Source: Burkholderiales bacterium (lineage in GTDB: Bacteria > Pseudomonadota > Gammaproteobacteria > Burkholderiales > SG8-39). From it: a DNA stretch of 64,000 nucleotides. Position 1 is the first letter of the stretch; every line of letters begins with the position of its first letter. Where the stretch lies: NCBI GenBank assembly GCA_044870335.1, contig JBIOYV010000111.1:61943-125942 (forward strand), given 5' to 3'. Shown here piece by piece: positions 1-64,000 of this stretch. Both the position numbers and the translations under genes were made by a program. The notes beneath the pieces were generated by a model. It searched no databases and was not told the origin of the DNA. It saw only the letters and a list, made by a program, of their open reading frames with translations.

Positions 1-611
1 ACGACCGCCTGGTGCTGTTCCAGGAGTCGGCGCTGTTCCCGTGGATGACCACGTGGGACAACATCCTTTACGGGCCGCGCGCGCGCGGCGAGGTCAGCCG
101 GCAGACGCGCGAGCTGGCGGAATTCCTGCTCAACAAGGTCGGGCTCAAGGACTTCCGCAAGAAATACCCGACGCAGCTCTCCGGCGGCATGCAGCGGCGC
201 GCGGAGCTTGCGCGCGCCATGATCAACAATCCCGCGGTGATGATCCTGGACGAGCCTTTTCGCGGCCTCGACGCGATGACCAAGGCGCTGATGTGGGAGT
301 ACTACTCGGCGCTGTTCGAGGAGACGCGCCGCACCAACTTCTTCGTCACCACCGACATCGACGAGGCGATCTTTCTCGCGGATCGGCTGCTCATCATGTC
401 CCACATTCCGACGCAGGTGCGGGCGGTGATCGAAATCGACGTGCCGCGCCCGCGCACCCAGCTCGACCTGGTGGAGAACGACCGCGCCAACGAGATCAAG
501 ATGCAGGCGCTGTCGATCCTGCACGAGGAAGCAATGAAGTCGTTCGCGCGCGGCAGCAAGGCGGCCGCCGACTTTGTCGAGGCCTACTCGAAGCGCGTGA
601 GCAAGATCTGA
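1..611 (+). CDS. ABC transporter ATP-binding protein, NitT/TauT (nitrate/sulfonate/bicarbonate) type. 5' end lies outside the window.
   Basis: ORF 12..611 shows the ABC signature LSGGMQRR and the Walker B motif ILDEP. Walker A must lie upstream of the window. The frame is open from position 3. Confidence 0.85.
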   Translation, partial: DRLVLFQESALFPWMTTWDNILYGPRARGEVSRQTRELAEFLLNKVGLKDFRKKYPTQLSGGMQRRAELARAMINNPAVMILDEPFRGLDAMTKALMWEYYSALFEETRRTNFFVTTDIDEAIFLADRLLIMSHIPTQVRAVIEIDVPRPRTQLDLVENDRANEIKMQALSILHEEAMKSFARGSKAAADFVEAYSKRVSKI

Positions 612-616
612 GCGCC

Positions 617-814
617 ATGGACTGGCTGCTGACGCGCGAGGCGGTGATTGCGCTCGCCGTGCTTGGCGCCATCGCCTCCACCGCGGCCAGCGCGCTGCAC
701 GTGCGCGGGATGCTCAGCGCGCTGCGCGCCCGCCAGCTGAATCTGCTCGGCTACGTGCTGATGGGGATCAGCATGGCGCTTTTCATCGTGGCCGGGTATC
801 GAGCTGCGGCCTGA
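617..814 (+). CDS. small two-helix membrane protein (65 aa), hypothetical
   Basis: ATG at 617, 5 nt after the ABC gene stop. Very high GC3 in this frame. Two hydrophobic helices. It is the end part of ORF 41..814. Confidence 0.45.
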   Translation: MDWLLTREAVIALAVLGAIASTAASALHVRGMLSALRARQLNLLGYVLMGISMALFIVAGYRAAA

Positions 815-816
815 AG

Positions 817-1707
817 TCACAGCGGATCCGCGCGTGGGCGGCGGCGCTCGGCGTCGTAGAAAGGCAGGGAGGTAGCGCGCGCGAGACGGCCGTCCTCCAG
901 GCGCAGCTCGCTCCCCGGCTGCAGGGACTGCGGTGGCGCGAACCCGAGTGCGATTCTCTTCTCCAGCAACGGCGAGAAGCACTCGCTGGTGACACGCGCG
1001 ACGGGCAGGGCGGCCGGCGCGGGTGCGCCGACGATTTCCAGGCCCACCAGCCTTTGCCGCATCTCGAAATCTCTCCGCTCGTTGACGAGCCGCTCGAGGC
1101 CGAGCTCGCGCGGGTTGGCTCGGCCGTCGATCTCGCGGTCGAAGAGCACGTAGCCCGCCTCCATGCGCAGGCTGTCGGCGGCGGCCCAGCCGCATTCGCT
1201 CAGCCCGTCGATGCCGCCCGCTTCGAACAGCCGCTCGCGCAACGCCCCGGCCCCGGCGGCAGGCACCAGAAGCTCGTAGCCGAGCTCGCCGCTGTAGCCG
1301 ATCCGGCCCACCGTCATTCCGTCGAAAGCACCGAAGTGGAAATAACGCAGTGAAAGAACGGCATCCTTGCCGATCAGTCGCGCGAGGATGCGGCCGCTCG
1401 CAGGCCCCTGAAGCGCGAGGATCGCGAACGCACCCGACACATCGCGGCCGCCGTAGGCGGCGCGGCGCCCCACGAACAGCCAGAAGCGCTCTTGGCCGAG
1501 GCGCCAGACCGTCGCGTCGATGAGGACCGCGCCGTCGTCCTTGAGGAGCAGCGTGTATGCTATCTGTCCGAGTTTGAGTTTCTCCAGATCGCGGGTCTGC
1601 AGACCCTTTAGCCCCGAGCCTCCGGAAAATTCGTACAAACCCATGAAGGAAAAATCGAACAGGCCCGCGGCGCGGCGCGTGGCGAGGTGCTCGTCCGCGG
1701 CGCTCAC
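817..1707 (-). CDS. GcvT-like folate-binding aminomethyltransferase family protein (297 aa)
   Basis: The motif AGLFDFSFMG matches the GcvT N-terminal motif (GMFDVSHM). Internal GTG start at 1707 overlaps the TGA of the upstream TauE gene (GTGA). The longer 468-aa ORF has an Arg-rich spurious N-terminus. Confidence 0.75.
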   Translation of the reverse strand: MSAADEHLATRRAAGLFDFSFMGLYEFSGGSGLKGLQTRDLEKLKLGQIAYTLLLKDDGAVLIDATVWRLGQERFWLFVGRRAAYGGRDVSGAFAILALQGPASGRILARLIGKDAVLSLRYFHFGAFDGMTVGRIGYSGELGYELLVPAAGAGALRERLFEAGGIDGLSECGWAAADSLRMEAGYVLFDREIDGRANPRELGLERLVNERRDFEMRQRLVGLEIVGAPAPAALPVARVTSECFSPLLEKRIALGFAPPQSLQPGSELRLEDGRLARATSLPFYDAERRRPRADPL

Positions 1708-2591
1708 AGCGTGCGCAGCAGGAGAAGCCCGCCGGTCAGGACGCACAGAATACCGGCGAGCCGGCGCAGGACGAGCGGGCTCGCAAGGTGCGCCAGGCGC
1801 ACGCCGACGACGAGACCGAGGAGCTCGAATACCGTGATGACAGCCGCCGTGTTCCAGTCGATGAACCCGTGCCGCAGGTTCGAGACGGAGCCCGAAGTCG
1901 CGGCCACGATCTGCAGCACCTGGCTCGTGGCCACCGCCGCGAGCGGCACGTAGCGCAGGATCACCATCAGCGGCACGGAGAAGAGCGGCCCCCCGGCCCC
2001 GGAGAAGCCCGAGCCGAAGCCCGCCGCGGCGCCGATCGAGGCAAGCAGCCATTTTTCGGCGCGGCCCCGGCCGTCGCGGGACCGCAAGCCCGGTTTTACC
2101 GGGAAGAGCACGTAGAACCCCGCGGCGACGATCACCAGCGCGATGACGATGGCGAGCGGGCGGGGATCGACCAGAGCGGCGGCGGCGGCACCGCAGAAGC
2201 CGAAGAAGAGCGCGGCGGCGCATACGGGCAGCGTGATGTTCCAGTCGATGCTGCCACGTCGTTGATACAGAAAGCTGCCGACGATGCCGGTGAAAAGGAA
2301 GCTGAAGAGCGAGGTCGCCGCCGCCTCGTGGATGGTGAGCCCGCCAAAGAGCGCCAGGAACGAAACCATCAGCACGCCGCCGACGCCGACCGTGCCGATG
2401 AGCAGGCCGACGAACGCGGCCACCGCCGCAAGGAGCAGGATCGAGCTCAGCCGGCGGCGAAGGCGACGAGCTCGCTCGTAAGCAGCACGGCGAGCTTCTT
2501 CATCAGGGCATAGCCGAGGCCAGGGTCGCCTTCCATGAGTCGGTTGAGCGCCGCGCCGTCGATGGCGACGACTTCGCACGCGGTGAGGCAA
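1704..2591 (-). CDS. sulfite exporter TauE/SafE family membrane protein. Start codon uncertain.
   Basis: Multi-TM protein with GxGGG-like repeats typical of TauE/SafE. The first ~47 aa of the ORF are Arg-rich and overlap the upstream cNMP gene, so the real start probably lies near 2450. Confidence 0.7.
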   Translation of the reverse strand: MPHRVRSRRHRRRGAQPTHGRRPWPRLCPDEEARRAAYERARRLRRRLSSILLLAAVAAFVGLLIGTVGVGGVLMVSFLALFGGLTIHEAAATSLFSFLFTGIVGSFLYQRRGSIDWNITLPVCAAALFFGFCGAAAAALVDPRPLAIVIALVIVAAGFYVLFPVKPGLRSRDGRGRAEKWLLASIGAAAGFGSGFSGAGGPLFSVPLMVILRYVPLAAVATSQVLQIVAATSGSVSNLRHGFIDWNTAAVITVFELLGLVVGVRLAHLASPLVLRRLAGILCVLTGGLLLLRTL

Positions 2592-2899
2592 TAGGCGGTG
2601 GCGATGCGGCGCGCGTGGCCCTCGACCAGCGGCGCCCAGCCGAACACGTCGCCGCGGCGGATGATGTCCCCGGCCGAGGTTTCGCGCTTGCCCAGGCCGA
2701 GGGTGAACCGCACCATGCCGTCGGCGAGGACGTAGAAATCGTCGACCGCGTCGCCCACGGTGTAGATGCGCGTGTCCTGCGGGAAGAAGCGGCCGCGGCC
2801 AAGCGTCGCAACGCGTTCGAGTTGCGCCTTGTCGAGGCCGGAAAAGAAGCGCGCCCGGTCCAGGACACCCGCGGCGTCGAAGGACGTTTCTGCGCTCAA
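2447..2899 (-). CDS. cyclic-nucleotide-binding domain protein (150 aa)
   Basis: Single cNMP-binding fold (FFSGL...GDxFG...RxA). TTG start at 2899 overlaps the PanB-like stop (TTGA). It forms the C-terminal part of the artefactual 737-aa ORF 2447..4660. Confidence 0.7.
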   Translation of the reverse strand: MSAETSFDAAGVLDRARFFSGLDKAQLERVATLGRGRFFPQDTRIYTVGDAVDDFYVLADGMVRFTLGLGKRETSAGDIIRRGDVFGWAPLVEGHARRIATAYCLTACEVVAIDGAALNRLMEGDPGLGYALMKKLAVLLTSELVAFAAG

Positions 2900-3798
2900 C
2901 CGGTGTTCGCGGCGCGGCGCGGGCTCTTGCCCGCCATCTGCCTGAACTTGGCGAGCTCGTCTTCCTTCATGAAGACGGTGTGCTCGGTTCCCGGGTATTT
3001 GCGCTCGCGCACGTCGTCGCGGTAGTCGGACAGACCCTTCTCGATGATCGGCACCAGGTCGACGTAGATCTTGGAGTGGCGCGGCACGTGCGCCTCGTAC
3101 AGGTGGAACAGGTCCGAGCCGATGATGTGCACGCCGTGCGCGCGGTTGCCGGCGCCGAGCGAGATCACGGGTACGGGAAGGGTTTCGGCGAGGTATTCGC
3201 AGACCTCGGAGGTCGTGACCTCGCACATGATGGAGAAGCAGCCGGCGTCGACCATCGCCCAGGCGTCGTCGACCAGCTCCTTGGCGCGGTCGGCGGTCTT
3301 GCCCTGGGCGAAGAAGCCGCCGAGCTGCGGCATGCGCATCGGCGTGATGCCGATGTGGCCCTGCACCGGGATGCCGGCCTTGATGATCGCCTCGATGTAC
3401 TTCGCGTGATGCTGGTTGCCTTCGCACTTCATCACCTCGGCGCCGCCCTGCGACACGTACTTGGCGGCGTTGTCCACCGCCTGCTGCGCCGACAGGTGAA
3501 AGCTCATGTAGGGCATGTCGACCATGCGCAGGCCGTACTTGGAGCCGCGCTTCACCGCCTGCGCCATGAACATGACTTCCTCGAAAGACACCGAGGTGGT
3601 GGTCTCGTGGCCGAAGAGCACCATGCCGCCGGTGTCGGACACGCACAGGATGTCGATGCCGACGCGGTCGGCGATGATCGCGGTCTCGTAGTCGTACACG
3701 GCGAGCTGCACGATCGGCTCGCCTTTCTTCATCTTCTCCACCAGCATCGGGATGGTGACCTTCTTGCGCGCGGGCTGCGCGGGCTTGGCATCGGCCAT
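2896..3798 (-). CDS. panB: 3-methyl-2-oxobutanoate hydroxymethyltransferase (PanB/KPHMT) family protein with a C-terminal extension
   Basis: Strong PanB-like sequence (VYDYETA..., GHIGITPM, MCEV). RBS GGAGG sits 9 nt before the ATG at 3798. Confidence 0.8.
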   Translation of the reverse strand: MADAKPAQPARKKVTIPMLVEKMKKGEPIVQLAVYDYETAIIADRVGIDILCVSDTGGMVLFGHETTTSVSFEEVMFMAQAVKRGSKYGLRMVDMPYMSFHLSAQQAVDNAAKYVSQGGAEVMKCEGNQHHAKYIEAIIKAGIPVQGHIGITPMRMPQLGGFFAQGKTADRAKELVDDAWAMVDAGCFSIMCEVTTSEVCEYLAETLPVPVISLGAGNRAHGVHIIGSDLFHLYEAHVPRHSKIYVDLVPIIEKGLSDYRDDVRERKYPGTEHTVFMKEDELAKFRQMAGKSPRRAANTG

Positions 3799-3882
3799 GG
3801 ATGACATTCCTCCTCTGACGAATCGCTTGGATAGCAAGAACGAGGCGCGAATGCAAGCGGGGATGTTTCTCCAGGAAACGCC

Positions 3883-4428
3883 TCAGCTCAGGTTTCGGCG
3901 GCTGCGTTTCAATCCCCATTGCCGGCGCCGCATCCACAGCGCCTTGCGGCCGATGCCGAGCATGCGCGCGAGCTCGATCTCGCTGTGCGAGTCCTGGAAG
4001 CGCTCGACCACCTCGCGGATGTAGTCCTCGATCGCGAGCGGACGTCCGCCCGTCAGCGGCATGCGGCGCTGGGCGAGCGCGCGCGCCACCGCGCGCAGGA
4101 ACTCGTCGTTGTTGAACGGCTTCATCACATAGTCGACCGCGCCGCCGCGCAGCGCGGCGATCGCGCTCTCGATCGACGAGTAGCTGGTGATCATGATGAT
4201 CGGCAGCCGAGGCCTGCGGGCGCGGACCGCGGCGATGACCTCGAGGCCGGTGCCGTCGGGCAGCTTGAGATCCGTGATCACGAGGTCCGGCTCGGCGGCG
4301 TCGACGCGGGTCCTCGCTTCCTTCGCGCTGCCCGCGCGCTGCACGGCATAGCCCTCGCGCTCGAGGAGCAGGCCGACCACCTCGGACACGCCGGGATCGT
4401 CTTCGATGAGCAGGACGCGCTCGTTCAT
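3883..4428 (-). CDS. response regulator: REC domain plus C-terminal Fis-type HTH, with no sigma54 AAA domain
   Basis: D-box LLIEDD, DLKLPDG and a C-terminal HTH. ATGA overlap with the kinase gene upstream. Confidence 0.85.
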   Translation of the reverse strand: MNERVLLIEDDPGVSEVVGLLLEREGYAVQRAGSAKEARTRVDAAEPDLVITDLKLPDGTGLEVIAAVRARRPRLPIIMITSYSSIESAIAALRGGAVDYVMKPFNNDEFLRAVARALAQRRMPLTGGRPLAIEDYIREVVERFQDSHSEIELARMLGIGRKALWMRRRQWGLKRSRRNLS

Positions 4429-5114
4429 ATCGGAAGCGCGATCTCGAAGCGCGCCCCGCCCTGCGGATGGTTCGCGGCGCGGATGCTGCCGCCGAGCTCG
4501 TGCACGATCTCGTAGCTGATCGCGAGGCCGAGCCCGATGCCCTCGCCGGGCTGCTTGGTGGTGAAGAACGGCTCGAACACGCGCTCGAGGTGCTCCGGCA
4601 CGATTCCGGGGCCGGCATCGCGGATCGCGAGCACGACCTCGCGGCCGTCGCGGCGAGCATGCGCTTCGATGCTGCCGCTCCCCTGCATCGCCTGCGCCGC
4701 GTTCAGGAAGATGTTGAGCACCACCTGCTCGAGCTCGCCGGGGCGCGACAGCACCGTGACGCCCGGCGCGCCCTGGTATTTCACCTCTACGGTCTGGCCG
4801 CAGGGACTGTGGCGCAGCAGCGCTTCGGCCGCATGCACGGCATCGTCTACGGCGAGCGGCTCGGCGTCACCCTGCACGCGCGAATAGTGGCCGAGCTTCC
4901 TGGTGATCGCGACGACGCGCGCGACGTTCGCGGCGATCGAGGCGAGGCCCTTTTCCATCGTCTCGGGCGTGACGCCGCGCCTGGACTGCAGGATCTGCAG
5001 CATCGACGACACTGCGGCGAGCGGGTTCGACACTTCGTGGCACACGGCGGCGAGCATGAAGCCGAGCGAGGCGAGGCGCTGGGTCTGTGCAGGGATCGGG
5101 TTCTCGTCGTTCAT
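4425..5114 (-). CDS. cytoplasmic sensor histidine kinase (HisKA + HATPase_c, no TM segment; 230 aa)
   Basis: H-box CHEVSNPL and N/G-boxes (NAAQAM, GIGLGL). ATG at 5114 is preceded by GAGGGGGG and overlaps the MFS gene stop (ATGA). Confidence 0.85.
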   Translation of the reverse strand: MNDENPIPAQTQRLASLGFMLAAVCHEVSNPLAAVSSMLQILQSRRGVTPETMEKGLASIAANVARVVAITRKLGHYSRVQGDAEPLAVDDAVHAAEALLRHSPCGQTVEVKYQGAPGVTVLSRPGELEQVVLNIFLNAAQAMQGSGSIEAHARRDGREVVLAIRDAGPGIVPEHLERVFEPFFTTKQPGEGIGLGLAISYEIVHELGGSIRAANHPQGGARFEIALPI

Positions 5115-6310
5115 GTCGCCCCCCTCAGCGCGGGTCGCGCGATCGCGCGCTCGTCGATCGGGACGCAGAGCGCCGCCGCCGCGATCGAAAGCGCGATCGA
5201 CGTGAGCCAGATGAGCTCGTAGGAGCCGGTGAGATCGTAGGCCGCGCCGCCCGCCCAGGCGCCGACGAACGCGCCGAGCTGGTGGCCGAGGAACGAGATC
5301 GAGAACAGCGTCGAGAGGTACTTCACGCCGAAAATCTGTGCCACCAGCGAGTTGGTGAGCGGCACGGTGGCGAGCCAGGTGACGCCGAGCACCGCCGCGA
5401 AGAGGTAGGTGCCTGCGGCGGAAAACGGCGCGGCGAGGTACAGGGAAATGGCGATGGCTCGGATGACATAAAGCCACGTCAGGATCCATTTCTTACTGTA
5501 GCGGCCGCCCAATGCCCCTGCCACGGAGGAGCCGACGATATTGAAGAACCCGATCGTCGCGAGCGCGGTCATCCCCTGCGTCGGCGTGAGGCCGCGGTCG
5601 ACCGCGTAGGCCGGCAGGTGCGTCATCACGAAGATCGTCTGGAAGCCGCAGACGAAGAAGCTGCCGGTGAGGAGCCAGAAGCCGCGGTGATGTATCGCCT
5701 CGGCGAGGGCCTCGCCGATCGACTGCTCGCTCTCGTGCGCCGCGGGATTGCGCCCGCCCAGCGCGGCGCCGAGCGGGATGATCAGGAACGCAGCCGCGCC
5801 CAGCACGACCAGGGCGTTGACCCAGCCGAGGCCTGAAATGAGCGCCTGGCCGCCGGGCAGCATGGCGAACTGGCCGATCGAGCCGCAGGCGCCGGTGATG
5901 CCCACGGCGAAGCTGCGGCTCTCCGGCGGAAAGGCCCGCGCGACGACCGCGAGGACCACGCCGAAGCCGGTGCATGCGAGGCCCAGCCCGATGAGCAGGC
6001 CCGCCGTGGCGTTGAGCTCGAGCGGCGTGGCCGAGTGCGCCATCGCGATGAGCCCCAGCCCGTAGGCGAGGCCGCCGAGCGACAGGACGCGGCCGGCGCC
6101 GTAGCGGTCGGCGATCGCCCCGGCGAGCGGCATGCCGAGGCCCCACACCAGGTTCTGCAGCGCGATTGCGAAGGAGAACACCTCGCGTCCGCAGCCGAGG
6201 TCGATCGTCATCGGCCGCAGGAACAGGCCGAAGCTCTGGCGCGTGCCGAGCGCGAGCATCAGGATGAGGCCTCCGCAGACGAGGATCCCCGCAGGCGAGC
6301 GCCAACGCAT
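5111..6310 (-). CDS. MFS transporter (oxalate/formate-antiporter-like)
   Basis: 399 aa with 12 predicted TM helices. First gene of the coupled minus-strand operon. Confidence 0.85.
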   Translation of the reverse strand: MRWRSPAGILVCGGLILMLALGTRQSFGLFLRPMTIDLGCGREVFSFAIALQNLVWGLGMPLAGAIADRYGAGRVLSLGGLAYGLGLIAMAHSATPLELNATAGLLIGLGLACTGFGVVLAVVARAFPPESRSFAVGITGACGSIGQFAMLPGGQALISGLGWVNALVVLGAAAFLIIPLGAALGGRNPAAHESEQSIGEALAEAIHHRGFWLLTGSFFVCGFQTIFVMTHLPAYAVDRGLTPTQGMTALATIGFFNIVGSSVAGALGGRYSKKWILTWLYVIRAIAISLYLAAPFSAAGTYLFAAVLGVTWLATVPLTNSLVAQIFGVKYLSTLFSISFLGHQLGAFVGAWAGGAAYDLTGSYELIWLTSIALSIAAAALCVPIDERAIARPALRGAT

Positions 6311-6331: not shown

Positions 6332-6844
6332 ATGAAGCTTTGCATAGTGTCCGACAGCCACGATCGCGCCGACGCCCTCGCGGACGCGGTGCGCGCGGCC
6401 GCGGCGAAAGGCGCGCAGGCGGTGATCCACTGCGGCGATGTCATCGGCACGCAGACCTTGCGCGGCGCCATGGCGGTCGGCCTGCCGATGCACGTCATCC
6501 ACGGCAACAACCTCGGCGACCCCGTGTCGCTCTCGCGCTGGGCGCGCGACAGCGACGGCCGGCTCCAGTACCACGGCCCCGACGCGCGGCTCGACCTCGG
6601 CGGACGCCGGATCTTCGTCGTGCACTATCCGGAATACGGCTACGCCATGGCGTGCACCGGGGACTGGGATCTCGTCTGCTGCGGCCATTCGCACCAGGCA
6701 GGCATCGAGCAAATCCTCAATGTGAAGAGCGGCAAGACATGGTTGGTGAACCCCGGTACGGTGGCGGGGCTCGCCGCACCGGCGACCTGGGTGCTCGGCG
6801 ATCTTGCTGCAATGCACTTCGAGCGGCATTCGCTCGCTCTATAG
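6332..6844 (+). CDS. metallophosphoesterase (YfcE/MJ0936-like phosphodiesterase; 170 aa)
   Basis: MKLCIVSDSH...GD, GHSH and GNHD-like motifs. Internal ATG at 6332 within ORF 6035..6844. Confidence 0.8.
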   Translation: MKLCIVSDSHDRADALADAVRAAAAKGAQAVIHCGDVIGTQTLRGAMAVGLPMHVIHGNNLGDPVSLSRWARDSDGRLQYHGPDARLDLGGRRIFVVHYPEYGYAMACTGDWDLVCCGHSHQAGIEQILNVKSGKTWLVNPGTVAGLAAPATWVLGDLAAMHFERHSLAL

Positions 6845-6909: not shown

Positions 6910-7680
6910 ATGTTTGCAATCAATCCGTTCGCCGCGCTGTCGGCGACGATACCCCCTGCCGCCATGCAGGCCTACGTCGTGGCCATGGTCGCTCTGGTCG
7001 CCGCGGGTACGCTGTTCGACATCGTGCACAAGGGCAGCGCCCGGTATTTCTTCGACAACTGGCGCCGCTCGAAGGCGAGGGCGCGGAGCGAGCTCAGCGG
7101 CGGCGAGCTGGCGTCGATCGCAGTCCAGAGCGCCGTGGTGGATGTCCTCGCGTCCGGGGAATTCTGCAGCGCGCGCCGCCGCATCGCCCATCTGCTGACC
7201 ATGTACGGCTTCCTGATCCACGTGATCTCCACCGTCGTGATGGTGTTCAACTATTCGACGGCTTCCATCTGGCCGCACCTCTGGTGGATCGGGGGCGTCA
7301 TGGTCTGTATCGGCGGCTACTGGTTCTGGTTCTTCATCCGCGCCGACGTCGCCGCCGAAGGGAACTCGCCGCTCCGCATCATGCGCGCGGACTTGTTCAT
7401 CCTGTCGCTCCTGGCCAGCGTCACGCTCGGGCTCATCTGGGCGTGGGCGCAGGCGCGCGGCAGTACCGGGTCCCATGTTTGGTTTGCTCTTTACATCATC
7501 GCAACGACGCTGCTCTTCGGCTCGGTGCCGTGGTCGAAGTTCGCCCACATGTTCTTCAAGCCGGCGGCGGCGTTCGAAAAGAGGGTCTCGCACGCGAACG
7601 GCACGCGGAGCAATCTGCCTGGGCCCGCCGACAAGCCGGAGCAGTTCGGTAGCGCACGCACCGCGCCGCGCCACTACTGA
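6910..7680 (+). CDS. aprM: putative adenylylsulfate reductase membrane anchor AprM
   Basis: Polytopic membrane protein lying immediately upstream of aprBA. This arrangement is known from sulfur-oxidising proteobacteria. RBS GAGGAGG precedes the start. Confidence 0.6.
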   Translation: MFAINPFAALSATIPPAAMQAYVVAMVALVAAGTLFDIVHKGSARYFFDNWRRSKARARSELSGGELASIAVQSAVVDVLASGEFCSARRRIAHLLTMYGFLIHVISTVVMVFNYSTASIWPHLWWIGGVMVCIGGYWFWFFIRADVAAEGNSPLRIMRADLFILSLLASVTLGLIWAWAQARGSTGSHVWFALYIIATTLLFGSVPWSKFAHMFFKPAAAFEKRVSHANGTRSNLPGPADKPEQFGSARTAPRHY

Positions 7681-7691: not shown

Positions 7692-8156
7692 ATGCCTACT
7701 TTCGTCTACATGACCCGCTGCGACGGCTGCGGGCACTGCGTCGACATCTGCCCCTCCGACATCATGCACGTCGACAAGACCTATCGGCGCGCCTACAACA
7801 TCGAGCCGAACATGTGCTGGGAGTGCTACTCCTGCGTGAAGGCCTGTCCGCAGAACGCCATCGATGTCCGCGGCTACGCCGACTTCGCCCCCTTGGGGCA
7901 CAGTGTCCGGGTGCTTCGGGAAGAGGCAAAGGCGACCGTTTCATGGCGGCTCAAGTTCCGGGACGGCCGCGAGAAGAACTTCGTATCCCCGATCCGCACC
8001 ACGGCCTGGGGATCGATCAAAGGTCCGGCGGAATACGACGCGCCGCGCGCCGAGGATTTCGCGAGCCAGGAGCTCGCGCACGAGCCGACCTCGCTCAAGA
8101 TCGACGGCGGATTGCCGACGCTGCGCGCCGGCCGGCTCAAGCCCGGAGTCCTTTGA
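7692..8156 (+). CDS. aprB: adenylylsulfate reductase beta subunit
   Basis: N-terminus MPTFVYMTRCDGCGHCVDICP plus a second CxxCxxC ferredoxin motif. Classic AprB. Confidence 0.9.
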   Translation: MPTFVYMTRCDGCGHCVDICPSDIMHVDKTYRRAYNIEPNMCWECYSCVKACPQNAIDVRGYADFAPLGHSVRVLREEAKATVSWRLKFRDGREKNFVSPIRTTAWGSIKGPAEYDAPRAEDFASQELAHEPTSLKIDGGLPTLRAGRLKPGVL

Positions 8157-10000
8157 TGGGGCTTTTCGGCGGCAGGAAGACCGTTCTCGTCGACGCCGAC
8201 ATCCTCGTCGTCGGCGGCGGCATGGCGGGCTGCGGCGCGACTTACGAAAGCCGCTACTGGGGACGCGACCTGAAGATCGTGTGCGTCGAGAAGGCGAACA
8301 TCGAGAGGAGCGGCGCGGTCGCGCAGGGCCTCTACGCAATCAACTGCTACATGGGCATGCAGTGGAACGAGAACCAGCCCGAGGACCATGTGCGCTACGC
8401 GCGCAACGACCTCATGGGCCTGGTGCGCGAGGACCTGGGCTACGACATCGCGCGCCACGTCGACGGCACGGTGCACAAGTTCGAGGAATGGGGCCTGCCG
8501 ATCATGCGCGACCCCAAGACCGGCCGCTACCAGCGCGAAGGCAAGTGGCAGATCATGATCCACGGCGAGAGCTACAAGCCGATCGTCGCCGAGGCCGCGC
8601 GCAAGGCCGCGACCCAGGTCTACAACCGGATCATGGTGACGCACCTCCTGATGGACTCGGCGAAGCCGAACCGCGTCGCCGGCGCCGTCGGGTTCAACGT
8701 GCGCACAGGCGACTACCACGTGTTCCGAGCCAAGACGGTCATCGTCTGCGCCGGGGGCGCGTCGCACATCTTCAAGCCGCGCGCGGTGGGCGAAGGAATG
8801 GGGCGCACCTGGTATGCGCCGTGGAGCAGCGCGTCGGCCTACGGGCTGCCGATCCAGGTCGGAGCGAAGATGACGCAGATGGAGAACCGCATCGTCCTTA
8901 CCCGCTTCAAGGACGGCTACGGCCCGGTCGGCGCCTACTTCCTCCATCTCAAGACGTACACGCAGAACGGCTACGGCGAGGAGTACGAGAAGAGGTGGTA
9001 CGAGGACACCAAGGCCCTGGTGGGCGACTACGTCGACCGACACCCGGTGCCAACCTGCCTGCGCAACCACGCGCTCCTGAAGGAGGTCGCGGCCGGCCGC
9101 GGTCCGATCCGCATGGTGACCAAGGAGGCGTTCCAGGATCCGCACAAGGAGGTGGTCGGCTGGGAGAACTTCCTCGGCATGACGATCGGCCAGGCGGTGG
9201 TCTGGGCATCGCAGAACATCGATCCCAAGGAGATCAATCCCGAGCTCACCACGTCCGAGCCCTACGTCATGGGCTCGCACGCCACCTGCTCGGGTGCGTG
9301 GGCGAGCGGGCCGGAAGACTACGCTCCCGACGAGTATCAGTGGGGCTACAACCGCATGATGACGGTCGAGGGCCTTTTCGGGGCCGGCGACACCATCGGC
9401 GGCACCGCCCACAAATTTTCGTCAGGCTCGTTCACCGAAGGGCGCATCGCGGCCAAGGCGGCGGTGAAGTACGTGAAGGACATGAAGAACGCCCAGCCGC
9501 AGGTGAGCGAGCAGGAAGTTCGCGACCTGCGGAAAACCATCTACCAGCCGCTCGAGAACTTCCGCGTCGGCCGCAACGAGATCACCGCCGGCACCGTCTC
9601 GCCGAGCTACCTGCTTCCGATCCACGGGCTGCAGCGCCTCGAGAAGATCATGGACGAGTACGTCGGCGGCATCGGCACCAACTACATGACCAACGGCAAG
9701 CTGCTCGAGCGCGGCCTCGAATTGCTGGGCATGCTGAAGGACGACATGAACAGCATGGGCGCCGAGGACCTGCACCAGCTTCAGCGCGTGTGGGAGCTGC
9801 ACCACCGGCTGCTCGCCTCGGAGTCCGTCACCCGCCACACGCTCTTCCGCGAGGAGACGCGCTGGCCGGGGTACTACTATCGGGGCGACCACATGAAGCT
9901 GGATGACGAGAACTGGCACTGCTTCACCCTCTCTCGCTACGACCGCCATAGCGGCGAGTGGACGATGGGGAAGGCGCCGGTCTACCACATCGTCGACTAG
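8156..10000 (+). CDS. aprA: adenylylsulfate reductase alpha subunit
   Basis: FAD-binding motif ILVVGGGMAGCGA and AprA-like sequence throughout. TGATG overlap with aprB. Confidence 0.92.
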   Translation: MGLFGGRKTVLVDADILVVGGGMAGCGATYESRYWGRDLKIVCVEKANIERSGAVAQGLYAINCYMGMQWNENQPEDHVRYARNDLMGLVREDLGYDIARHVDGTVHKFEEWGLPIMRDPKTGRYQREGKWQIMIHGESYKPIVAEAARKAATQVYNRIMVTHLLMDSAKPNRVAGAVGFNVRTGDYHVFRAKTVIVCAGGASHIFKPRAVGEGMGRTWYAPWSSASAYGLPIQVGAKMTQMENRIVLTRFKDGYGPVGAYFLHLKTYTQNGYGEEYEKRWYEDTKALVGDYVDRHPVPTCLRNHALLKEVAAGRGPIRMVTKEAFQDPHKEVVGWENFLGMTIGQAVVWASQNIDPKEINPELTTSEPYVMGSHATCSGAWASGPEDYAPDEYQWGYNRMMTVEGLFGAGDTIGGTAHKFSSGSFTEGRIAAKAAVKYVKDMKNAQPQVSEQEVRDLRKTIYQPLENFRVGRNEITAGTVSPSYLLPIHGLQRLEKIMDEYVGGIGTNYMTNGKLLERGLELLGMLKDDMNSMGAEDLHQLQRVWELHHRLLASESVTRHTLFREETRWPGYYYRGDHMKLDDENWHCFTLSRYDRHSGEWTMGKAPVYHIVD

Positions 10001-10048: not shown

Positions 10049-11374
10049 TTATGGCGCCGAAACGATGCGGCCAGCGTCCAAAGGCTGCGCCGCGTTCGCG
10101 AGGATGTAGTCGGCGATCTTGGCGCCTACGGCTCGGGTTGCCTCGCTCGCGCCCCGGAAATGCATGCCGCCGTAGGTGCGCGCGTCGACGCCTTCCTGCG
10201 CCATGTCCGAGATGCGCGTGTAGCGCCGCGGCTGGACGCCGCCCTCGGGCGGTGCCGGGAAGACGGTGTTGAAGGCGGGGTGAACCTCGAAGCTGTTCGC
10301 GTCGCCGAAGAAGTGCTGAAGCACGCGGGGGGCGGCGCCATGCGATCCCGGATGCGAGGCCGGATATTCCGGGTGATTCGGCGTCGGAATAAGCGGAACC
10401 CAGCTTGAGATCGGGGCGGTGTCCGGGTTGCGGGCGTGCTGCGCGTGCGCAATGGCTTTGATCGGCCGCCAGGTCACTTCCTTGGGATCCATGCCGAAGT
10501 CGCGCTTGGCGCGGAACACCGTCACCGACGTGTCGTGCAGCGCAATCGCGAGCAGCGCGAAGATGCGCGAGTTCTCGGCGCGGCCGGTGCCGTGTGCCTT
10601 GGCGAGCTGAATCGCCGCCTCGACGTAATCGTTGGTGACGTAGCCGTTGAAGAAGTAGGCGATGTACGCCTGGTCCGGGGTGCGGCGAGAGCCGGCCTTC
10701 ACGCCGAATGTCGCGATCTCGTTGAAGCTCTCGGCATAGGCCGCGCTGTCGAGCTTTGCCCAAGGCCGCGGGAAGGCCGGCTGGAACTGGGCGTTGCTAG
10801 TCAGCACGAACGGCGTCGTGAAGGGGAGGTTGCCCGGCGACATGCTGGTAGCGGTCGCGGATTCCCACTGGCCGATGGCTGCGCCGGCGCCGTTGAAAGC
10901 GGGGACCGGAGCGTTGAAGCCGTCGGTCGCACGCCACGCCAGCACCTGGGTCGCGACGCTCTCGCCCCAGGCGATGCCGCGCGCGACGCTCGCCGCGTCG
11001 TCGCGGGCGAACTCGGCGAGAGACCGCGCGCGCTGGTTGTCGAAGCGGCTGAGCTGCGCCGGATAGAACGACTTCAACGTGGCGTAGGCCGCCTGCACCA
11101 GCGCCGCGCGCGCATGAGTTCCGGCCGGCGCCTTCTGCGTCACGAAGACGGGCGTGTATCTGCCAAGGACGCCGTTTTGCGCGTCGAACATTGCGGTGTT
11201 TACCGTCGCAGCCATGCGCATGCTCTGCGGGTTGCCCAAGGTACTTGCGACGATCGCGTCGAGCATCACCTGATTCCACACCAGGGTCTCGTCGACCTCG
11301 ACATCGGCGCAGACGCCGGGCAAGGGAGCGAGCAATGCGATGAACAGGATCGAGCGAAGAAATGCGCTACTCAT
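10049..11374 (-). CDS. PAP2-superfamily vanadium-haloperoxidase-like / acid-phosphatase-like protein, secreted
   Basis: Signal peptide MSSAFLRSILFIALLAPLPGVCA. PAP2 motifs (KRDFG...PEYPSGH...HFRGA). RBS AAGGAGG lies 6 nt before the ATG at 11374. Confidence 0.7.
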   Translation of the reverse strand: MSSAFLRSILFIALLAPLPGVCADVEVDETLVWNQVMLDAIVASTLGNPQSMRMAATVNTAMFDAQNGVLGRYTPVFVTQKAPAGTHARAALVQAAYATLKSFYPAQLSRFDNQRARSLAEFARDDAASVARGIAWGESVATQVLAWRATDGFNAPVPAFNGAGAAIGQWESATATSMSPGNLPFTTPFVLTSNAQFQPAFPRPWAKLDSAAYAESFNEIATFGVKAGSRRTPDQAYIAYFFNGYVTNDYVEAAIQLAKAHGTGRAENSRIFALLAIALHDTSVTVFRAKRDFGMDPKEVTWRPIKAIAHAQHARNPDTAPISSWVPLIPTPNHPEYPASHPGSHGAAPRVLQHFFGDANSFEVHPAFNTVFPAPPEGGVQPRRYTRISDMAQEGVDARTYGGMHFRGASEATRAVGAKIADYILANAAQPLDAGRIVSAP

Positions 11375-11509: not shown

Positions 11510-12493
11510 ATGCGGGGCCTATCTGTAGCAATCTCCGTCATGCTGCTGTCATGCCTGGCTAACCCGGCATGGAGCGCGGCGCAGCCGGGCAAGACCTACC
11601 GCATCGGTTACCTGTCGCTCGCCCCGATTACCGACAAGCCCTCGCCCGAGCGCGCGGCGTTTTTCCGCGCCATGCGGGAGCTGGGATATATCGAGGGCAA
11701 GAACCTGATCGTCGAATACCGCTCGGCCGAGGCAAACATCGAATCGCTGCCCGATGCGGCCAGCGATCTGGTGGAGCTGAACCCGCCTCTGATCTTCGCC
11801 GTGGGAACCCCGACTGCGCTCGCCGCGAAGCAGGCGACGCAGACGATCCCGATCGTGATGATCGCCGCGGATCCGGTGGAGAACGGCCTGGTCCCCAGCC
11901 TCGCCAGGCCGGGCGGGAATCTGACCGGGCTCTCCTTGTTCGACGCCAGGCTCGCTTCCAAGCGGCTCGAGCTTCTCAGGGAAGCGCTGCCGAAGGCCTC
12001 GCGCATCGCGGTGCTCTGGACGCGCTTCCACCCGGCCCACCTGCAGACGCTGCCGCTGCTGGAAGCCCGCGCGAAGGAGCTCGGCCTCAGGCTGCAGGGA
12101 TTCGAGGTGCCGCGGACCACCGAGCTGCAGCAGGCGTTCGACCGCATGAGCGCGGCGCGGCCGGACGCGATCCTGGTGCTGACCGACTACCGCACGCTCA
12201 CCTATCGTGCGCTGATCGCCGAGTTCGCGGCGAGGAACGGCCTGCCGACGATGTTCGGATCGCCCGAGTCGGTGGAGGCCGGCGGGTTGATGTCGTATGG
12301 AGTGAGGCTCGCCGAGCTGTTCACCCGTGCCGCCGGATTCGTCGATCGGGTGCTGAACGGCGCACGGCCGGGTGACTTGCCGATCGAGCAGCCGAGCCGC
12401 TTCGACCTCGTGGTCAATCGCAGGACCGCGAAGCTGCTGGCGCTGGAGTTGCCGGCGCCGTTACTGCTGCGCGCGACCGTGTTCGTCGAATGA
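11510..12493 (+). CDS. ABC-type substrate-binding protein (COG2984-like, periplasmic) with no transporter partner
   Basis: Signal peptide followed by YRIGYLSL...DLVEL... type-I SBP fold. Stop overlaps the kinase start (ATGA). Confidence 0.8.
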   Translation: MRGLSVAISVMLLSCLANPAWSAAQPGKTYRIGYLSLAPITDKPSPERAAFFRAMRELGYIEGKNLIVEYRSAEANIESLPDAASDLVELNPPLIFAVGTPTALAAKQATQTIPIVMIAADPVENGLVPSLARPGGNLTGLSLFDARLASKRLELLREALPKASRIAVLWTRFHPAHLQTLPLLEARAKELGLRLQGFEVPRTTELQQAFDRMSAARPDAILVLTDYRTLTYRALIAEFAARNGLPTMFGSPESVEAGGLMSYGVRLAELFTRAAGFVDRVLNGARPGDLPIEQPSRFDLVVNRRTAKLLALELPAPLLLRATVFVE

Positions 12494-14727: not shown

Positions 14728-15386
14728 GCTTTCGCCGGCCCGACGGGGTCAAGCACCAGGCCAATGCGGGCTGCCGCGATTACCGCTTGCGTGCGGCTCG
14801 TCACGCTGAGCGTCTTGAGCACGTGGGTGACGTGATTCTTCACCGTCGACTCGGCGAGATCGAGCTCCCGGCAGATGAGCTTGTTGGACTTGCCCTGCAT
14901 CAACAGGGTCAGGACCTGCGACTGCCGCTCGGTAAGGCCGAGATCCGAAGGCCGCAGCTTCGCGCCGCCGGGCTGCAGCACGGGCTCGGCGCCGCCGAGG
15001 ATTGCGGGCGGAATATAGATCCCGCCCGAGAGCACGAGGCGCAGCGCGCTCGCCAGCACTTCGTTGGACGAGGACTTGGGAATGTATCCCATCGCCCCAT
15101 GGTCGAGCGCCTGGGTGACGCTCGCGCGGTCCTCCGCCGCTGAAATGACCACCACGGACACCGCCGGGTAACGCGTGCGCAGCTCGCCGAGCGCCGCCAG
15201 CCCGTGCATCCCCGGCAGGTTCAGGTCGAGAAGTACGAGCTCCAGTTCCGGCTGCGCTTCGATCAGCGCGAACGCCCGGCCACAGTCGCCGGCTTCGAAG
15301 ACGGTCACCTCGCGCCCGAGTTGCTCGAGAACGCAGCGCAGCGCGTCCCGAATCAGCGCGTGATCGTCCACTATGAGCACTTCCAT
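14709..15386 (-). CDS. LuxR/NarL-family response regulator
   Basis: REC domain (LIVDDH) plus a LuxR HTH (LTERQSQVL...). Convergent with the hybrid kinase and overlaps it by 19 nt. Confidence 0.88.
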   Translation of the reverse strand: MEVLIVDDHALIRDALRCVLEQLGREVTVFEAGDCGRAFALIEAQPELELVLLDLNLPGMHGLAALGELRTRYPAVSVVVISAAEDRASVTQALDHGAMGYIPKSSSNEVLASALRLVLSGGIYIPPAILGGAEPVLQPGGAKLRPSDLGLTERQSQVLTLLMQGKSNKLICRELDLAESTVKNHVTHVLKTLSVTSRTQAVIAAARIGLVLDPVGPAKAQPSGN

Positions 15387-19139: not shown

Positions 19140-19529
19140 TCAGAAAAATAGTCCCGACGCCGCGGCCAGCAAAATGACCACTTGGGCGATGGCAAGGCCG
19201 CCCTGCAACCGATCGCCTGCGGCGATCAGCGTGGGCACGATGCGCGCGTAGCAAGCGATGGTGATCGATGCAAACACGCTGATGCCGAGGAAGTTCAGGT
19301 AGTCGCCTTTGCCGAGGAGCCGAAGCCAGTCCCAGCCCGTGGGCGCGCCGGCCGTCGCGACATAGTGGTCGACCGGAAGCGTCCACAGGCGCGCGAGCTC
19401 CTCCCGCGGCACGTGCGGGTCGAGCACCCCGAACACGTAAGCGGCGAAACCCACCAACAGCGCCGCGAGGCCGATGCGGGTGCCGATATCCAGCCAGCGG
19501 GCGTAGATCGTCTGTTCGATCGGGACCAT
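19140..19529 (-). CDS. DUF1634-like small membrane protein
   Basis: 129 aa with 3 TM helices. Lies 3 nt downstream of the TauE gene, a conserved pairing. Confidence 0.6.
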   Translation of the reverse strand: MVPIEQTIYARWLDIGTRIGLAALLVGFAAYVFGVLDPHVPREELARLWTLPVDHYVATAGAPTGWDWLRLLGKGDYLNFLGISVFASITIACYARIVPTLIAAGDRLQGGLAIAQVVILLAAASGLFF

Positions 19530-19532
19530 CGC

Positions 19533-20372: not shown

Positions 20373-20374
20373 CG

Positions 20375-40714: not shown

Positions 40715-40788
40715 AAGTTGGAGCGGGATTCGAACCCGCGACAGATCGGTTTTCAGCCGATTGCTCTACCCGTCTGAGCTATCCAGAT
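40715..40788 (-). tRNA. tRNA-Phe(GAA)-like. Two acceptor-stem mismatches, no encoded CCA. Possibly a pseudogene.
   Basis: D-arm GCTCAGACGGGTAGAGC, anticodon arm ATCGG-CTGAAAA-CCGAT and T-arm GCGGGTTCGAATCCCGC read by hand. Its first nucleotide is shared with the CCA end of the adjacent tRNA-Met. Confidence 0.5.
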
Positions 40789-40862
40789 GGTGGCGAGAGT
40801 GAGAGTCGAACTCACGACCTCCGCCTTATGAGAGCGTTGCTCTACCGCTGAGCTATCTCGCC
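40788..40862 (-). tRNA. tRNA-Met(CAT)
   Basis: Acceptor GGCGAGA/TCTCGCC, anticodon loop CTCATAA, T-loop TTCGACT, A73 then CCA. Confidence 0.7.
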
Positions 40863-41311
40863 CAACATTCGTCGCTCCCACGCCGCGGTACACGCCACGC
40901 CGATGTTCCAGGCAGGCGCGCCAGGGAGGACTCACGAGCCTCGCCCGCTGCGAACGCGTTCACGAAGAATTCTTGCTACGGATGTGGCAAAGCTTTGGGG
41001 GGACCTGCCGGAGTCGCACCGGCACTTGCGGATTCACATTCCGCTGTGCTGCTGTTACACCAAGATCTCCATCGAATCGGTGATGGCGCGCCTGACAGGA
41101 CTCGAACCTGAACCGACGGATTACCCGGGCATTACTCCGGGCCGCGCTGCGCTTGGAAACGCGCTTCCCTTCAGAACCGTCATCGGACCCTGTCGGTGCA
41201 TCCGCAACCATGCCCGCTCACGCGTTTGCAAATCCGCCTCCGCTCTTAACGGCACCCTTCGTCACTCGTTTTGGGTGTGCACTTTCCCTGTTGTGCGACA
41301 GGCGCTTGCTC

Positions 41312-63021: not shown

Positions 63022-64000
63022 ATGCCGTCGGACATCGAAATCGCGCAGGCAGCCAAGATGCAGCGCATCTCCGCGGTCGCGCGCGAGAAGCTCGGAATCG
63101 CCGAAGAGCACCTGGAGCCCTACGGCCACTACAAGGCGAAGGTCTCGCTGAAGTACCTCGACACGCTCAAAGGCAAGAAGAACGGCAAGCTGATCCTGGT
63201 CACCGCGATCAGCCCGACGCCGGCCGGCGAGGGCAAGACCACCACCACGGTCGGCCTGGGCGACGCGCTCAATCACATCGGCAAGAAGGCGGTGATCTGC
63301 CTGCGCGAGCCCTCGCTCGGGCCGGTGTTCGGCATGAAGGGCGGCGCGGCGGGCGGCGGCTACGCCCAGGTGGTGCCGATGGAGGACATCAACCTGCATT
63401 TCACCGGCGATTTCGGCGCGATCCAGCTCGCGAACAACCTGCTCGCCGCGCTGATCGACAACCACATCAACCACGGCAACGAGCTCGGCATCGACGTGCG
63501 GCGCATCCAGTGGAAGCGGGTGCTCGACATGAACGACCGCGCGCTGCGCGACATCACGATCGCGCTGGGCGGCACCGCGAACGGCTATCCGCGCCAGGAC
63601 GGCTTCGACATCGTGGTTGCGTCCGAGGTCATGGCGATTTTCTGCCTCGCCACCAGCCTCAAGGACCTGAAGGATCGACTCGGCAAGATTGTCGTTGGCT
63701 ACACGCGCGAGCAGAAACCGATCCTGGCACGCGAGTTGAATGCGCACGGTGCCATGACGGTGCTGTTGAAGGAAGCGCTCAAGCCGAATCTGGTGCAGAC
63801 GCTGGAGAACAATCCAGCGTTCATCCACGGCGGGCCGTTCGCCAACATCGCGCACGGCTGCAATTCGGTGATCGCCACGCGCGCCGCCTTGAAGCTCGCC
63901 GATTACGTCGTCACCGAGGCCGGGTTCGGCGCCGACCTGGGTGCCGAGAAGTTCGTCGATATCAAGTGCAGGAAAAGCGGACTGCGGCCCTCTGCGGTGG
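63022..64000 (+). CDS. fhs: formate--tetrahydrofolate ligase (3' partial, continues beyond the window)
   Basis: [16 protein letters not shown]...[17 protein letters not shown]... P-loop. Frame open to the window end. RBS GAGGAG lies 7 nt upstream. Confidence 0.9.

Follow-up and report, generated by a model that had tools for sequence, protein, structure and literature searches.

What do seven neighbouring genes achieve together when they combine a transporter, a two-component system, a cyclic-nucleotide-type domain, an anion exporter and two proteins of folate-linked folds? This question is raised by positions 817 to 6,310, on the minus strand, of a 64,000-nucleotide stretch of DNA from a Burkholderiales bacterium (GenBank assembly GCA_044870335.1, contig JBIOYV010000111.1, positions 61,943 to 125,942; G+C ~67%), the whole of which is hereafter called the window. 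In order of transcription, the genes encode a major facilitator superfamily (MFS) transporter, a histidine kinase, a response regulator, a protein resembling ketopantoate hydroxymethyltransferase (PanB-like), a protein with a cyclic nucleotide monophosphate-binding fold (cNMP-like), a TauE/SafE-family exporter (TauE) and a protein resembling aminomethyltransferase (GcvT-like). A preliminary description, made from the letters of the DNA, considered the function of the cluster not assignable from known pathways. This was too strong, since the cluster looks like the accessory half of an island resembling msmABCD/EFGH, situated just past the left edge of the window, and since PMC4433239 (Table 1) lists a TauE, GcvT and 'PanB' trio alongside the true msm genes of Filomicrobium sp. 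Y. A pathway-level role, in the catabolism of one-carbon (C1) sulfonates, can largely be suggested, and we put at roughly 0.62 the probability that the seven genes together serve an island for C1-sulfonate catabolism as its control and product-handling module.

Loci compared and gene layout

The proteins of the window were assigned to domains with Pfam and NCBIfam profiles and their curated cut-offs. A species scan, with one genome taken per species, found PanB-like relatives in at least 268 species, and the best 80 loci (numbered with the prefix L) were examined. Nearly all of these come from uncultured Burkholderiales, including Usitatibacter, Casimicrobiaceae, Thiobacillaceae, Rubrivivax-like metagenome-assembled genomes (MAGs) and Pelomicrobium sp. 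G1. Presence of a gene was counted only among loci with enough flanking sequence, i.e., 61 loci for the genes downstream of the PanB-like gene and 57 for those upstream, and linkage to oxygenase or importer genes was counted in the 42 loci with at least 9.5 kb downstream. L005 is a closely related contig of the Joint Genome Institute (JGI), the encoded proteins of which are 84-100% identical to those of the window. The features of the cluster are as follows.

5111..6310, minus strand: MFS transporter (399 aa; PF07690, 1.6e-37), first gene of the proposed regulatory unit
4425..5114, minus strand: HisKA/HATPase_c histidine kinase (229 aa; Pfam/NCBIfam)
3883..4428, minus strand: response regulator with a REC domain and a short C-terminal helix-turn-helix (HTH) domain (181 aa; PF00072)
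3865..3879, minus strand: perfect inverted repeat GTTTC-N5-GAAAC, a candidate response-regulator site
3828..3857, minus strand: promoter-like element CTTGCAT-17 nt-TGCTATCCA, invariant columns in a 14-species alignment
3814-3809, minus strand: AGGAGG, the Shine-Dalgarno sequence of the PanB-like gene, 10 nt upstream of ATG 3798
2896..3798, minus strand: PanB-like protein (300 aa; PF02548, 2.2e-79)
2447..2899, minus strand: stand-alone cNMP-binding-like protein (150 aa, TTG start; PF00027, 2.8e-14)
1704..2450 (caller start 2423), minus strand: TauE/SafE-family anion exporter (PF01925, 7.4e-37)
817..1707, minus strand: GcvT-like folate-binding protein (296 aa; PF01571, 2.5e-47, and PF08669)

The profiles agree with the seven minus-strand genes and the domains that were first given to them, and the gene calls of L005 match in genes and in lengths. 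The four-nucleotide junctions described earlier (ATGA, ATGA, TTGA and GTGA) are correct, with the MFS stop and the kinase start overlapping as ATGA, but the gap between the regulator and PanB-like genes had been given as 44 nt. The PanB-like start ATG 3798 is called in L005, agrees with the N-termini of homologues and follows the AGGAGG at 10 nt, so the gap measures 84 nt. For TauE, a start inside the next gene had been proposed; GTG 2423 is the start chosen by gene callers, but it is replaced by GTC or GTT in most close relatives. Because this GTG is not conserved while the TauE peptide is conserved back to CTG 2450, TauE most likely starts at this non-canonical CTG, overlapping the cNMP-like stop as CTGA. 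The GGCTGA junction between the two genes is present in ~13 of 21 loci compared, and other lineages have TTG or ATG there. The CTGA overlap was seen in the window, L005, L009-L013, L018, L019, L024, L025, L027 and L062, with no canonical start conserved.

Conservation of the module

The preliminary description had named a lack of conserved synteny as a reason to abandon its account of the cluster. Across the species-level loci the order of the genes is kept. Downstream of the PanB-like gene, TauE was found in 61/61 loci, the GcvT-like gene in 59/61 and the cNMP-like gene in 55/61; upstream, the regulator and the kinase each occurred in 49/57 and the MFS gene in 44/57. Since the arrangement is kept across all these species-level genome loci, it is far beyond chance, and the module is real and strongly conserved. 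Conservation is greatest in the PanB-like protein itself, which shows 79-98% identity across 80 species (median 91%). Its partners are less alike and drop to 40-55%: the median is 70% for the cNMP-like protein and 56% for TauE (minimum 40%), and GcvT-like identities are 48-65%.

The PanB-like protein

Judged by their sequences, the PanB-like proteins are a discrete, highly conserved subfamily of the ketopantoate hydroxymethyltransferase fold. When they were compared with 1.84 billion cluster representatives, the clade corresponded to about one full-length cluster at 50% identity, the other close matches being fragments; two small sister clusters followed at 46-47% and ordinary PanB at 41% or less. 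A search of plasmid proteins returned only ordinary PanB, at 37% identity or less, and no close PanB-like relative. The profile scores are mixed, with 267 bits for PF02548 (cut-off 28.7), a bare pass for TIGR00222 (213.3 vs 207.55) and a score below the cut-off for PRK00311 (241.7 vs 272).

The residues that bind Mg2+ and carry out enolisation in PanB are kept, which supports a C1-transferring role in the proposed island: all 60 clade members compared carry D45, D84, K112, E114, H136 and E181 (numbered as in E. coli). Twelve other positions, 81-96% conserved in ordinary PanB, hold a different and clade-invariant residue (L42C, G44S, S46T, F87Y, Y90F, G116N, Q142M, P184T, G201S, I202L, Q211V and G220H), and most of these substitutions are predicted to flank catalytic residues at the ends of barrel strands. 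The pantothenate genes panC, panD and panE were absent from the Pfam-annotated neighbourhoods of gene-called loci. Apparent 'PanB' proteins of 350-420 aa were considered as PanB-cNMP fusions and rejected, as they are frameshift read-throughs or deletion chimeras.

The GcvT-like, TauE and cNMP-like proteins

The GcvT-like protein passes at the level of the Pfam domains only, with scores well under the cut-offs of TIGR00528 (109.8 vs 235.85) and PRK00389 (137 vs 300). It begins at profile position ~30 and is ~32 N-terminal residues short of full-length orthologues; the identity to a 358-aa orthologue is 44%, from residue 35 of that orthologue onward. The N-terminal region of GcvT, as described for the E. 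coli T protein, is needed for association with the H protein, and neither gcvH nor gcvP was found in any annotated locus. The match to the tetrahydrofolate (THF)-binding domain of trimethylamine N-oxide (TMAO) demethylase is nearly as good as that to true T proteins.

TauE matches PF01925 with 127.7 bits over profile positions 1-235 of 237. The preliminary description linked two folate-type C1 folds to a sulfite/sulfonate exporter and a sulfonate-type ATP-binding cassette (ABC) system, and both the domains and the genomic context agree with it here. Its stand-alone cNMP-binding protein survives in part: the PF00027 fold is present, with no DNA-binding HTH domain, but the residues that would contact a cyclic nucleotide are absent. 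In comparison with CRP, Glu72 is changed to Trp and Ser83 to Ile within a signature, FGWA...RRIA, that is shared by all three contexts of this domain, namely the stand-alone protein, a fusion to a Rieske ferredoxin and a fusion to an ABC permease (L040, 3652-4332 and 5634-6977). Because these two residues contact cAMP in CRP, the cNMP-like domains of the island are likely to have a common ligand other than cAMP or cGMP. In L002, an FGWA...RRIA domain is apparently fused to an ABC ATPase as well, which makes 3-4 uses of the domain per island.

The surrounding island

Features outside the cluster are listed below.

3..611, plus strand: NitT/TauT-type ABC ATPase, C-terminal part, cut by the window edge (profile matches)
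617..814, plus strand: 65-aa membrane protein, last gene of the ABC operon (called in L005 and L007; no family match)
6332..6844, plus strand: YfcE-family metallophosphoesterase, divergent from the MFS gene (TIGR00040, 57.3 vs cut-off 56.25)
6910-7680, plus strand: aprM-like membrane anchor (weak QmoC/TcuB-like match)
7692-8156, plus strand: aprB (APS-reductase_C domain, PF12139)
8156-10000, plus strand: aprA (TIGR02061, 983.7 bits vs cut-off 641.75)
19533-20372, minus strand: second TauE-like permease, after sat (gene call)
20375-21433, minus strand: sat, the true start of which may be further upstream (PRK04149, 471 bits vs cut-off 387)
58065-59660 and 59674-62478, plus strand: NAD-linked formate dehydrogenase (TIGR01591, 758 bits)
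63022..64000, plus strand: formate-THF ligase (fhs), cut by the window end (PRK13505, 602 bits on the truncated protein)

A NitT/TauT-type ATPase on the opposite strand had been noticed earlier; it is there, but it converges on the 3' end of the cluster instead of lying upstream. Its best matches are nitrate, taurine and Sao ABC ATPases, and it is probably the end of an msmEFGH-like sulfonate importer operon. This operon can be followed in the nearest relatives with longer flanks, L012 and L019, the proteins of which for this gene set are ~74-96% identical to the window's, and in many other loci too. In L012 and L019, the genes before the last ATPase encode a permease, an ATPase, a permease and an SsuA-family binding protein, and further along lie a Rieske ferredoxin-cNMP-like fusion, a reductase of the Fer2-FNR type and both subunits, beta and alpha, of a Rieske oxygenase. 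In most other lineages the importer permease is fused to a cNMP-like domain. The 65-aa membrane protein has orthologues of 61-66 aa in L019, L027, L062, L089 and L090. Its stop lies 2 nt from the convergent stop of the GcvT-like gene in the window, so there is no room for terminators between the two.

The combination of a four-component oxygenase and a sulfonate-type ABC importer was found in L012, L019, L027, L040, L044, L045 and L087; in L040 all of these genes are co-directional with the PanB-like unit. A binding protein, ferredoxin, reductase or oxygenase subunits occurred in 31/42 loci. JGI names the alpha subunit 'methanesulfonate monooxygenase large subunit'.

Genes for folate-bound C1 units and for sulfite also recur. 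FolD (1-2 copies, 25 loci), methylenetetrahydrofolate reductase (MTHFR) or Fhs is encoded between the GcvT-like gene and the transporter, and sulfite-oxidation genes near the module comprise aprMBA in 9 loci and sorAB in 6 loci. In Pelomicrobium, aprMBA is inserted between the cNMP-like and TauE genes. A metallophosphoesterase accompanies aprMBA in 8/9 of the aprMBA-bearing genome loci. In the L022-type loci examined (L022 and L051), two genes stand between the MFS gene and a sat gene 1.8-2.8 kb upstream of it, and the oxygenase is not nearby. In the window, aprMBA is predicted to provide the adenosine 5'-phosphosulfate (APS) reductase route of cytoplasmic sulfite oxidation, and formate dehydrogenase with Fhs would supply an outlet for THF-borne C1 units.

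Several further observations concern the wider neighbourhood. In Pelomicrobium (L001-L003 and L089, locus positions 1-5840), metK, ahcY, sorAB and a pterin-4a-carbinolamine dehydratase gene stand directly upstream of the MFS gene. The sat gene of the window, the second TauE-like permease and a 129-aa membrane protein (19140-21433, minus strand) could be a separate sulfate/sulfite unit. After aprA comes a VCPO_2nd protein, which is vanadium chloroperoxidase/PAP2-like (10049-11323, minus strand), and the region made up of 10049-11323 (minus strand) and 11672-15386 also encodes an ABC_sub_bind protein, a dCache-HAMP hybrid kinase and a GerE-type regulator; L005 and L006 carry this set as well. 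Finally, 14 tRNA genes (Phe x2, Met, His, Asn, Ile, Gln, Val, Lys, Asp, Arg, Pro, Glu and Leu) lie within 1.7 kb at 40715-42438 on the minus strand, which is unusual for a bacterial chromosome.

Transcription units and regulation

A single co-translated operon of seven genes had been proposed. Because the 84-nt gap holds both the GTTTC-N5-GAAAC palindrome and an invariant CTTGCAT-17 nt-TGCTATCCA, there are probably two transcription units, the first made up of the MFS, kinase and regulator genes and the second of the PanB-like, cNMP-like, TauE and GcvT-like genes behind the promoter-like element. This element, the TGCTATCCA part of which is extended -10-like, is invariant in 14 species and its flanks are variable. 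Other lineages carry a sigma-54-type GGCAC-N5-TTGCT at the same position, ~55 nt before the PanB-like start, and GTTTC...GAAAC repeats precede the PanB-like gene in lineages with either type of promoter, which makes the repeat a candidate site for the response regulator. A terminator scan of the cluster gave nothing convincing after any gene, and Rfam models, run against the whole window, gave no riboswitch or any other RNA within the cluster, the only result being the tRNA array elsewhere.

The regulator of the window appears to be a shortened form. Its REC (4-123) and HTH (131-176) domains correspond in the alignment to positions 11-130 and 416-461 in the 473-aa sigma-54 regulator that relatives have at this place, and the ~285-aa AAA+ domain of the NtrC-type activator found in these relatives (~470 aa) is missing. 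Among regulator matches in the 80 loci, 56/66 are closer to the long form than to that of the window. The two marks of an NtrC-type system, an AAA+ sigma-54 domain and a -24/-12 promoter, are both absent from the window and present in many relatives. The window regulator resembles a sigma-54 activator of the NtrC type from which the AAA+ domain has been lost. The sigma-54 promoter was seemingly swapped for a sigma-70-like one in the lineage of the window, as seen against L001, L022, L040 and L090. In L014, L017, L018, L025 and L027 the long regulator is combined with the sigma-70-like element.

The kinase has neither a transmembrane nor a sensor domain. It aligns to residues 114-336 of a 341-aa orthologue, which means that a PAS-like N-terminal part of ~110 aa is missing in the window lineage. 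The best NCBIfam matches of the MFS transporter (L-lactate MFS SfMCT and the oxalate/formate family) are below their cut-offs, and it is probably of the oxalate/formate-antiporter or monocarboxylate type. Because the kinase is without a sensor domain and its start overlaps the MFS stop, the transporter may act as its co-sensor, by analogy with UhpC and UhpB.

Sister clades

More distant PanB-like proteins, 46-55% identical to that of the window or to its sister P0248, are found in four other contexts. L096, a Burkholderiales MAG, combines an SsuA-type binding protein, a sarcosine-oxidase-type flavin adenine dinucleotide (FAD) amine oxidase, a kinase, a sigma-54 regulator and the complete series of PanB-like, cNMP-like, TauE and GcvT-like genes. 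In L092 the PanB-like gene is followed by TauE, and L091 holds an MFS gene, the PanB-like gene and a CRP/FNR regulator, with an SBP56-family protein ~3 kb upstream that has a weak methanethiol-oxidase match only. L093 (Arthrobacter mangrovi, BRVS01000027.1, 2608-17439) has two PanB paralogues, MTHFR, an MFS gene, PurU, TauE, folE, pabB and thyA. The cluster of L093 also encodes a propionate/acetate-CoA ligase and an aldehyde dehydrogenase, and since A. mangrovi is cultivable it is suited to the study of PanB-like proteins.

Folate-linked genes recur across these sister contexts, with sulfur genes in three of the four and TauE in L092, L093 and L096. The pairing of the core in L096 with an FAD amine oxidase, not a Rieske oxygenase, indicates that the core is not tied to one primary enzyme. 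Both of these primary enzymes are, by their families, of formaldehyde-producing types.

Discussion

Substrates, enzyme reactions and regulation are what we infer from the gene content and context described above, and the proposed pathway runs as follows. An SsuA-type ABC system, known from relatives and encoded outside the window, would import a sulfonate, most plausibly methanesulfonate, which an MsmABCD-type four-component Rieske monooxygenase, likewise taken from relatives, would hydroxylate to hydroxymethanesulfonate. This product would equilibrate with formaldehyde and sulfite, both of which are toxic. Thermodynamically, the adduct of formaldehyde with bisulfite is stable, and near neutral pH it comes apart slowly; an enzyme able to split it, or to keep it from forming, would therefore be of use at just the place that these genes occupy. 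The GcvT-like and PanB-like proteins would move carbon at the level of formaldehyde onto THF, giving 5,10-methylene-THF. In this the GcvT-like protein would act as the THF domains of TMAO demethylase or sarcosine oxidase do, and in the PanB-like protein a Mg2+-bound enolate of a 2-oxoacid would take up formaldehyde and pass it to THF, or else the protein would act directly on hydroxymethanesulfonate. Methylene-THF would then be oxidised via FolD, Fhs and formate dehydrogenase. On the sulfur side, TauE would export sulfite or sulfonate, and sulfite would be oxidised by AprMBA and Sat in the window or by SorAB elsewhere. The first transcription unit, with its MFS transporter, sensor-less kinase and regulator, would turn on the second through GTTTC-N5-GAAAC, and the cNMP-like protein would probably sense a shared metabolite other than cAMP. 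The general idea of the preliminary description, that a C1 unit is moved to THF and sulfite is released, fits this island.

Some of our results weigh against this proposal. The window itself holds no oxygenase genes, only the last ATPase and the small membrane gene of the importer operon being inside it, and 11/42 loci are without oxygenase-system genes nearby. The need for two THF-type enzymes is not accounted for. A scan with a strict sigma-70 consensus called no promoter in the gap between the regulator and PanB-like genes, so the promoter is proposed from its conservation alone. Furthermore, the Rieske spacer is of 17 residues (CPH-X17-CIFH) in 7/7 of the linked alpha subunits with a Rieske region. 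All proven MsmA proteins have a spacer of 26 residues, CXH-X26-CXXH (PMC4433239), so the oxygenase is not classed here as a proven methanesulfonate monooxygenase, and the substrate could be another sulfonate.

A more specific version of the proposal is that the PanB-like protein, alone or with the GcvT-like protein, turns formaldehyde or hydroxymethanesulfonate into 5,10-methylene-THF, as a THF counterpart of Fae, the formaldehyde-activating enzyme of methylotrophs, and that the cNMP-like domains of the island bind a pathway intermediate and so jointly throttle import, oxygenation and C1 capture. We regard this as possible but doubtful. Formaldehyde left to condense spontaneously with THF does so too slowly for growth in vivo, and PanB was put forward as a catalyst that might load formaldehyde onto THF with ketopantoate as the carrier (PMC7073904), which together make such a role of the PanB-like protein plausible, in the broader proposal as well. 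The ground for putting PanB forward is that the PanB of M. tuberculosis condenses free formaldehyde with 2-oxoacids (cited in PMC7073904).

Among alternatives to the C1-sulfonate module as a whole, the one that survives best keeps the architecture and changes the substrate. The module would still handle a C1 unit and sulfite or sulfonate, and these would come from another sulfonate or methylated sulfur compound, for example dimethylsulfone-derived species, N-methylated aminosulfonates or isethionate-like compounds. In its favour, the betaproteobacterial 'MsmA' with the 17-residue spacer (Methylibium, Methyloversatilis and Thiobacillus) is unproven, this type never having been shown to oxidise methanesulfonate (PMC4433239), and the core of L096 goes with an amine oxidase. 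However, the JGI annotation of the alpha subunit is that of MsmA, the trio adjoins true msm genes in Filomicrobium, and the set of alpha, beta, ferredoxin and reductase genes with an adjacent sulfonate ABC system matches msmABCD/EFGH, all of which leaves a different substrate rather unlikely.

A model built on the preliminary description, in which the MFS transporter imports a larger hydroxymethylated or sulfonated 2-oxoacid and the PanB-like protein removes its hydroxymethyl group by a retro-aldol reaction, with the C1 unit going to THF and sulfite being released later, we consider improbable. The catalytic residues with which PanB binds 2-oxoacids are indeed intact, and in three divergent clades an MFS gene of the organic-acid type belongs to the PanB-like cluster, being the direct neighbour of the PanB-like gene in L091 and L093. 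In addition, the Arthrobacter cluster is without GcvT, so the PanB-like proteins would be the THF-loading step there. Yet the MFS families differ between the clades, so that these genes are not orthologous, and the recurrent neighbour is a monooxygenase of the C1 type. None of the loci showed an enzyme that desulfonates C3 or C4 sulfonates (Xsc, SuyAB, IslAB or similar), and there is no sign of a retro-aldol reaction acting on a sulfonated keto acid of larger size.

Lastly, it is most improbable that the gene is a housekeeping panB for pantothenate, with the GcvT-like protein merely supplying methylene-THF in a sulfur neighbourhood without functional meaning, because against the TIGR00222 pass and the full set of catalytic residues stand the marginality of that pass and the failure with PRK00311, the 12 changed positions, the absence of panC and panD nearby in any gene-called locus, the position of the gene behind a two-component-regulated, often sigma-54, promoter, and a linkage to TauE, GcvT and cNMP-like genes that holds across species-level loci (61/61 for TauE) and in sister clades at 46-55% identity.

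If the C1-sulfonate module is read correctly, it has a wider meaning. In the atmospheric sulfur cycle, methanesulfonate is one of the major intermediates, and its breakdown has so far been defined by one enzyme in a few Alphaproteobacteria. The module marks a large set of Burkholderiales from soil, groundwater and wastewater as probable users of C1 sulfonates, and it draws attention to the step after the oxygenase, in which formaldehyde and sulfite have to be kept apart and disposed of before they rejoin as a stable adduct. Should the PanB-like and GcvT-like proteins load formaldehyde onto THF, a long-standing question of methylotrophy would be answered, and synthetic C1-assimilation projects would gain an enzyme that they now lack (the problem is set out in PMC7073904).

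Comparison with known systems

The cluster resembles several known systems in part. With UhpABC, in which an MFS-like sensor works with a histidine kinase and a regulator, it may share the idea of signalling through a transporter, as the MFS gene is translationally coupled to a sensor-less kinase and then followed by the regulator. In contrast, UhpABC has a membrane-bound UhpB and a NarL-type UhpA, whereas the kinase here is soluble and the regulator is of a truncated NtrC type.

The likeness to PanB of E. coli (1M3U) and M. tuberculosis (1OY0) is a full-length fold match (E = 1e-43 to 1e-35) and extends to the Mg2+ ligands and to the Lys, Glu and His residues common to both. The PanB-like protein differs in being only ~35-40% identical to the solved PanB proteins and in its 12 substituted positions, and its context is catabolic and regulated, and without pantothenate genes nearby.

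Fae offers a functional parallel, since the role proposed here, like that of Fae, is to load formaldehyde onto a pterin C1 carrier beside a step that produces formaldehyde. Fae is dependent on tetrahydromethanopterin (H4MPT) and has an unrelated fold, whereas the carrier here would be THF, for which no equivalent enzyme is established.

For the GcvT-like protein, the closest parallels are the TMAO demethylase Tdm, dimethylglycine oxidase, sarcosine oxidase and DmdA, which share the GCV_T fold; TMAO demethylase 9q5a (86 bits) is among the best matches. In these enzymes the GcvT-like domain captures, as methylene-THF, the formaldehyde from an oxidative or lyase step. The GcvT-like protein of the window differs from them in that it stands alone and is shortened at its N-terminus, again without genes for the H and P proteins nearby.

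The nearest counterparts of the island as a whole are the msm regions of Filomicrobium sp. Y and Methylosulfonomonas methylovora, which likewise place a four-component Rieske monooxygenase beside a NitT/TauT-type sulfonate importer. Filomicrobium sp. Y grows on methanesulfonate, and its msm region was sequenced by Henriques and De Marco in 2015 (PMC4433239). There, the true msmABCD/EFGH genes are flanked by genes for TauE, a GcvT homologue, a 3-methyl-2-oxobutanoate hydroxymethyltransferase and a SoxCD-like sulfite dehydrogenase (PMC4433239, Table 1), on which the authors comment only that they are related to sulfur and methylotrophic metabolism (PMC4433239). The association of the trio was therefore already visible in a gene table of 2015, and our search of a literature library for the TauE/GcvT/PanB trio, or for an enzyme acting on hydroxymethanesulfonate, found only this list; the accessory trio is not known to have been characterised in any organism. 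The island described here differs from the msm regions in several respects. Its spacer is of 17 and not 26 residues, cNMP-like domains are attached to the ferredoxin and to one permease, and an MFS transporter, a kinase and a sigma-54-type regulator take the place of LysR. The host belongs to the Burkholderiales, and in this window the handling of sulfite would fall to AprMBA and Sat. The identical trio nevertheless stands beside oxygenases of both spacer types, which argues that both yield the same products.

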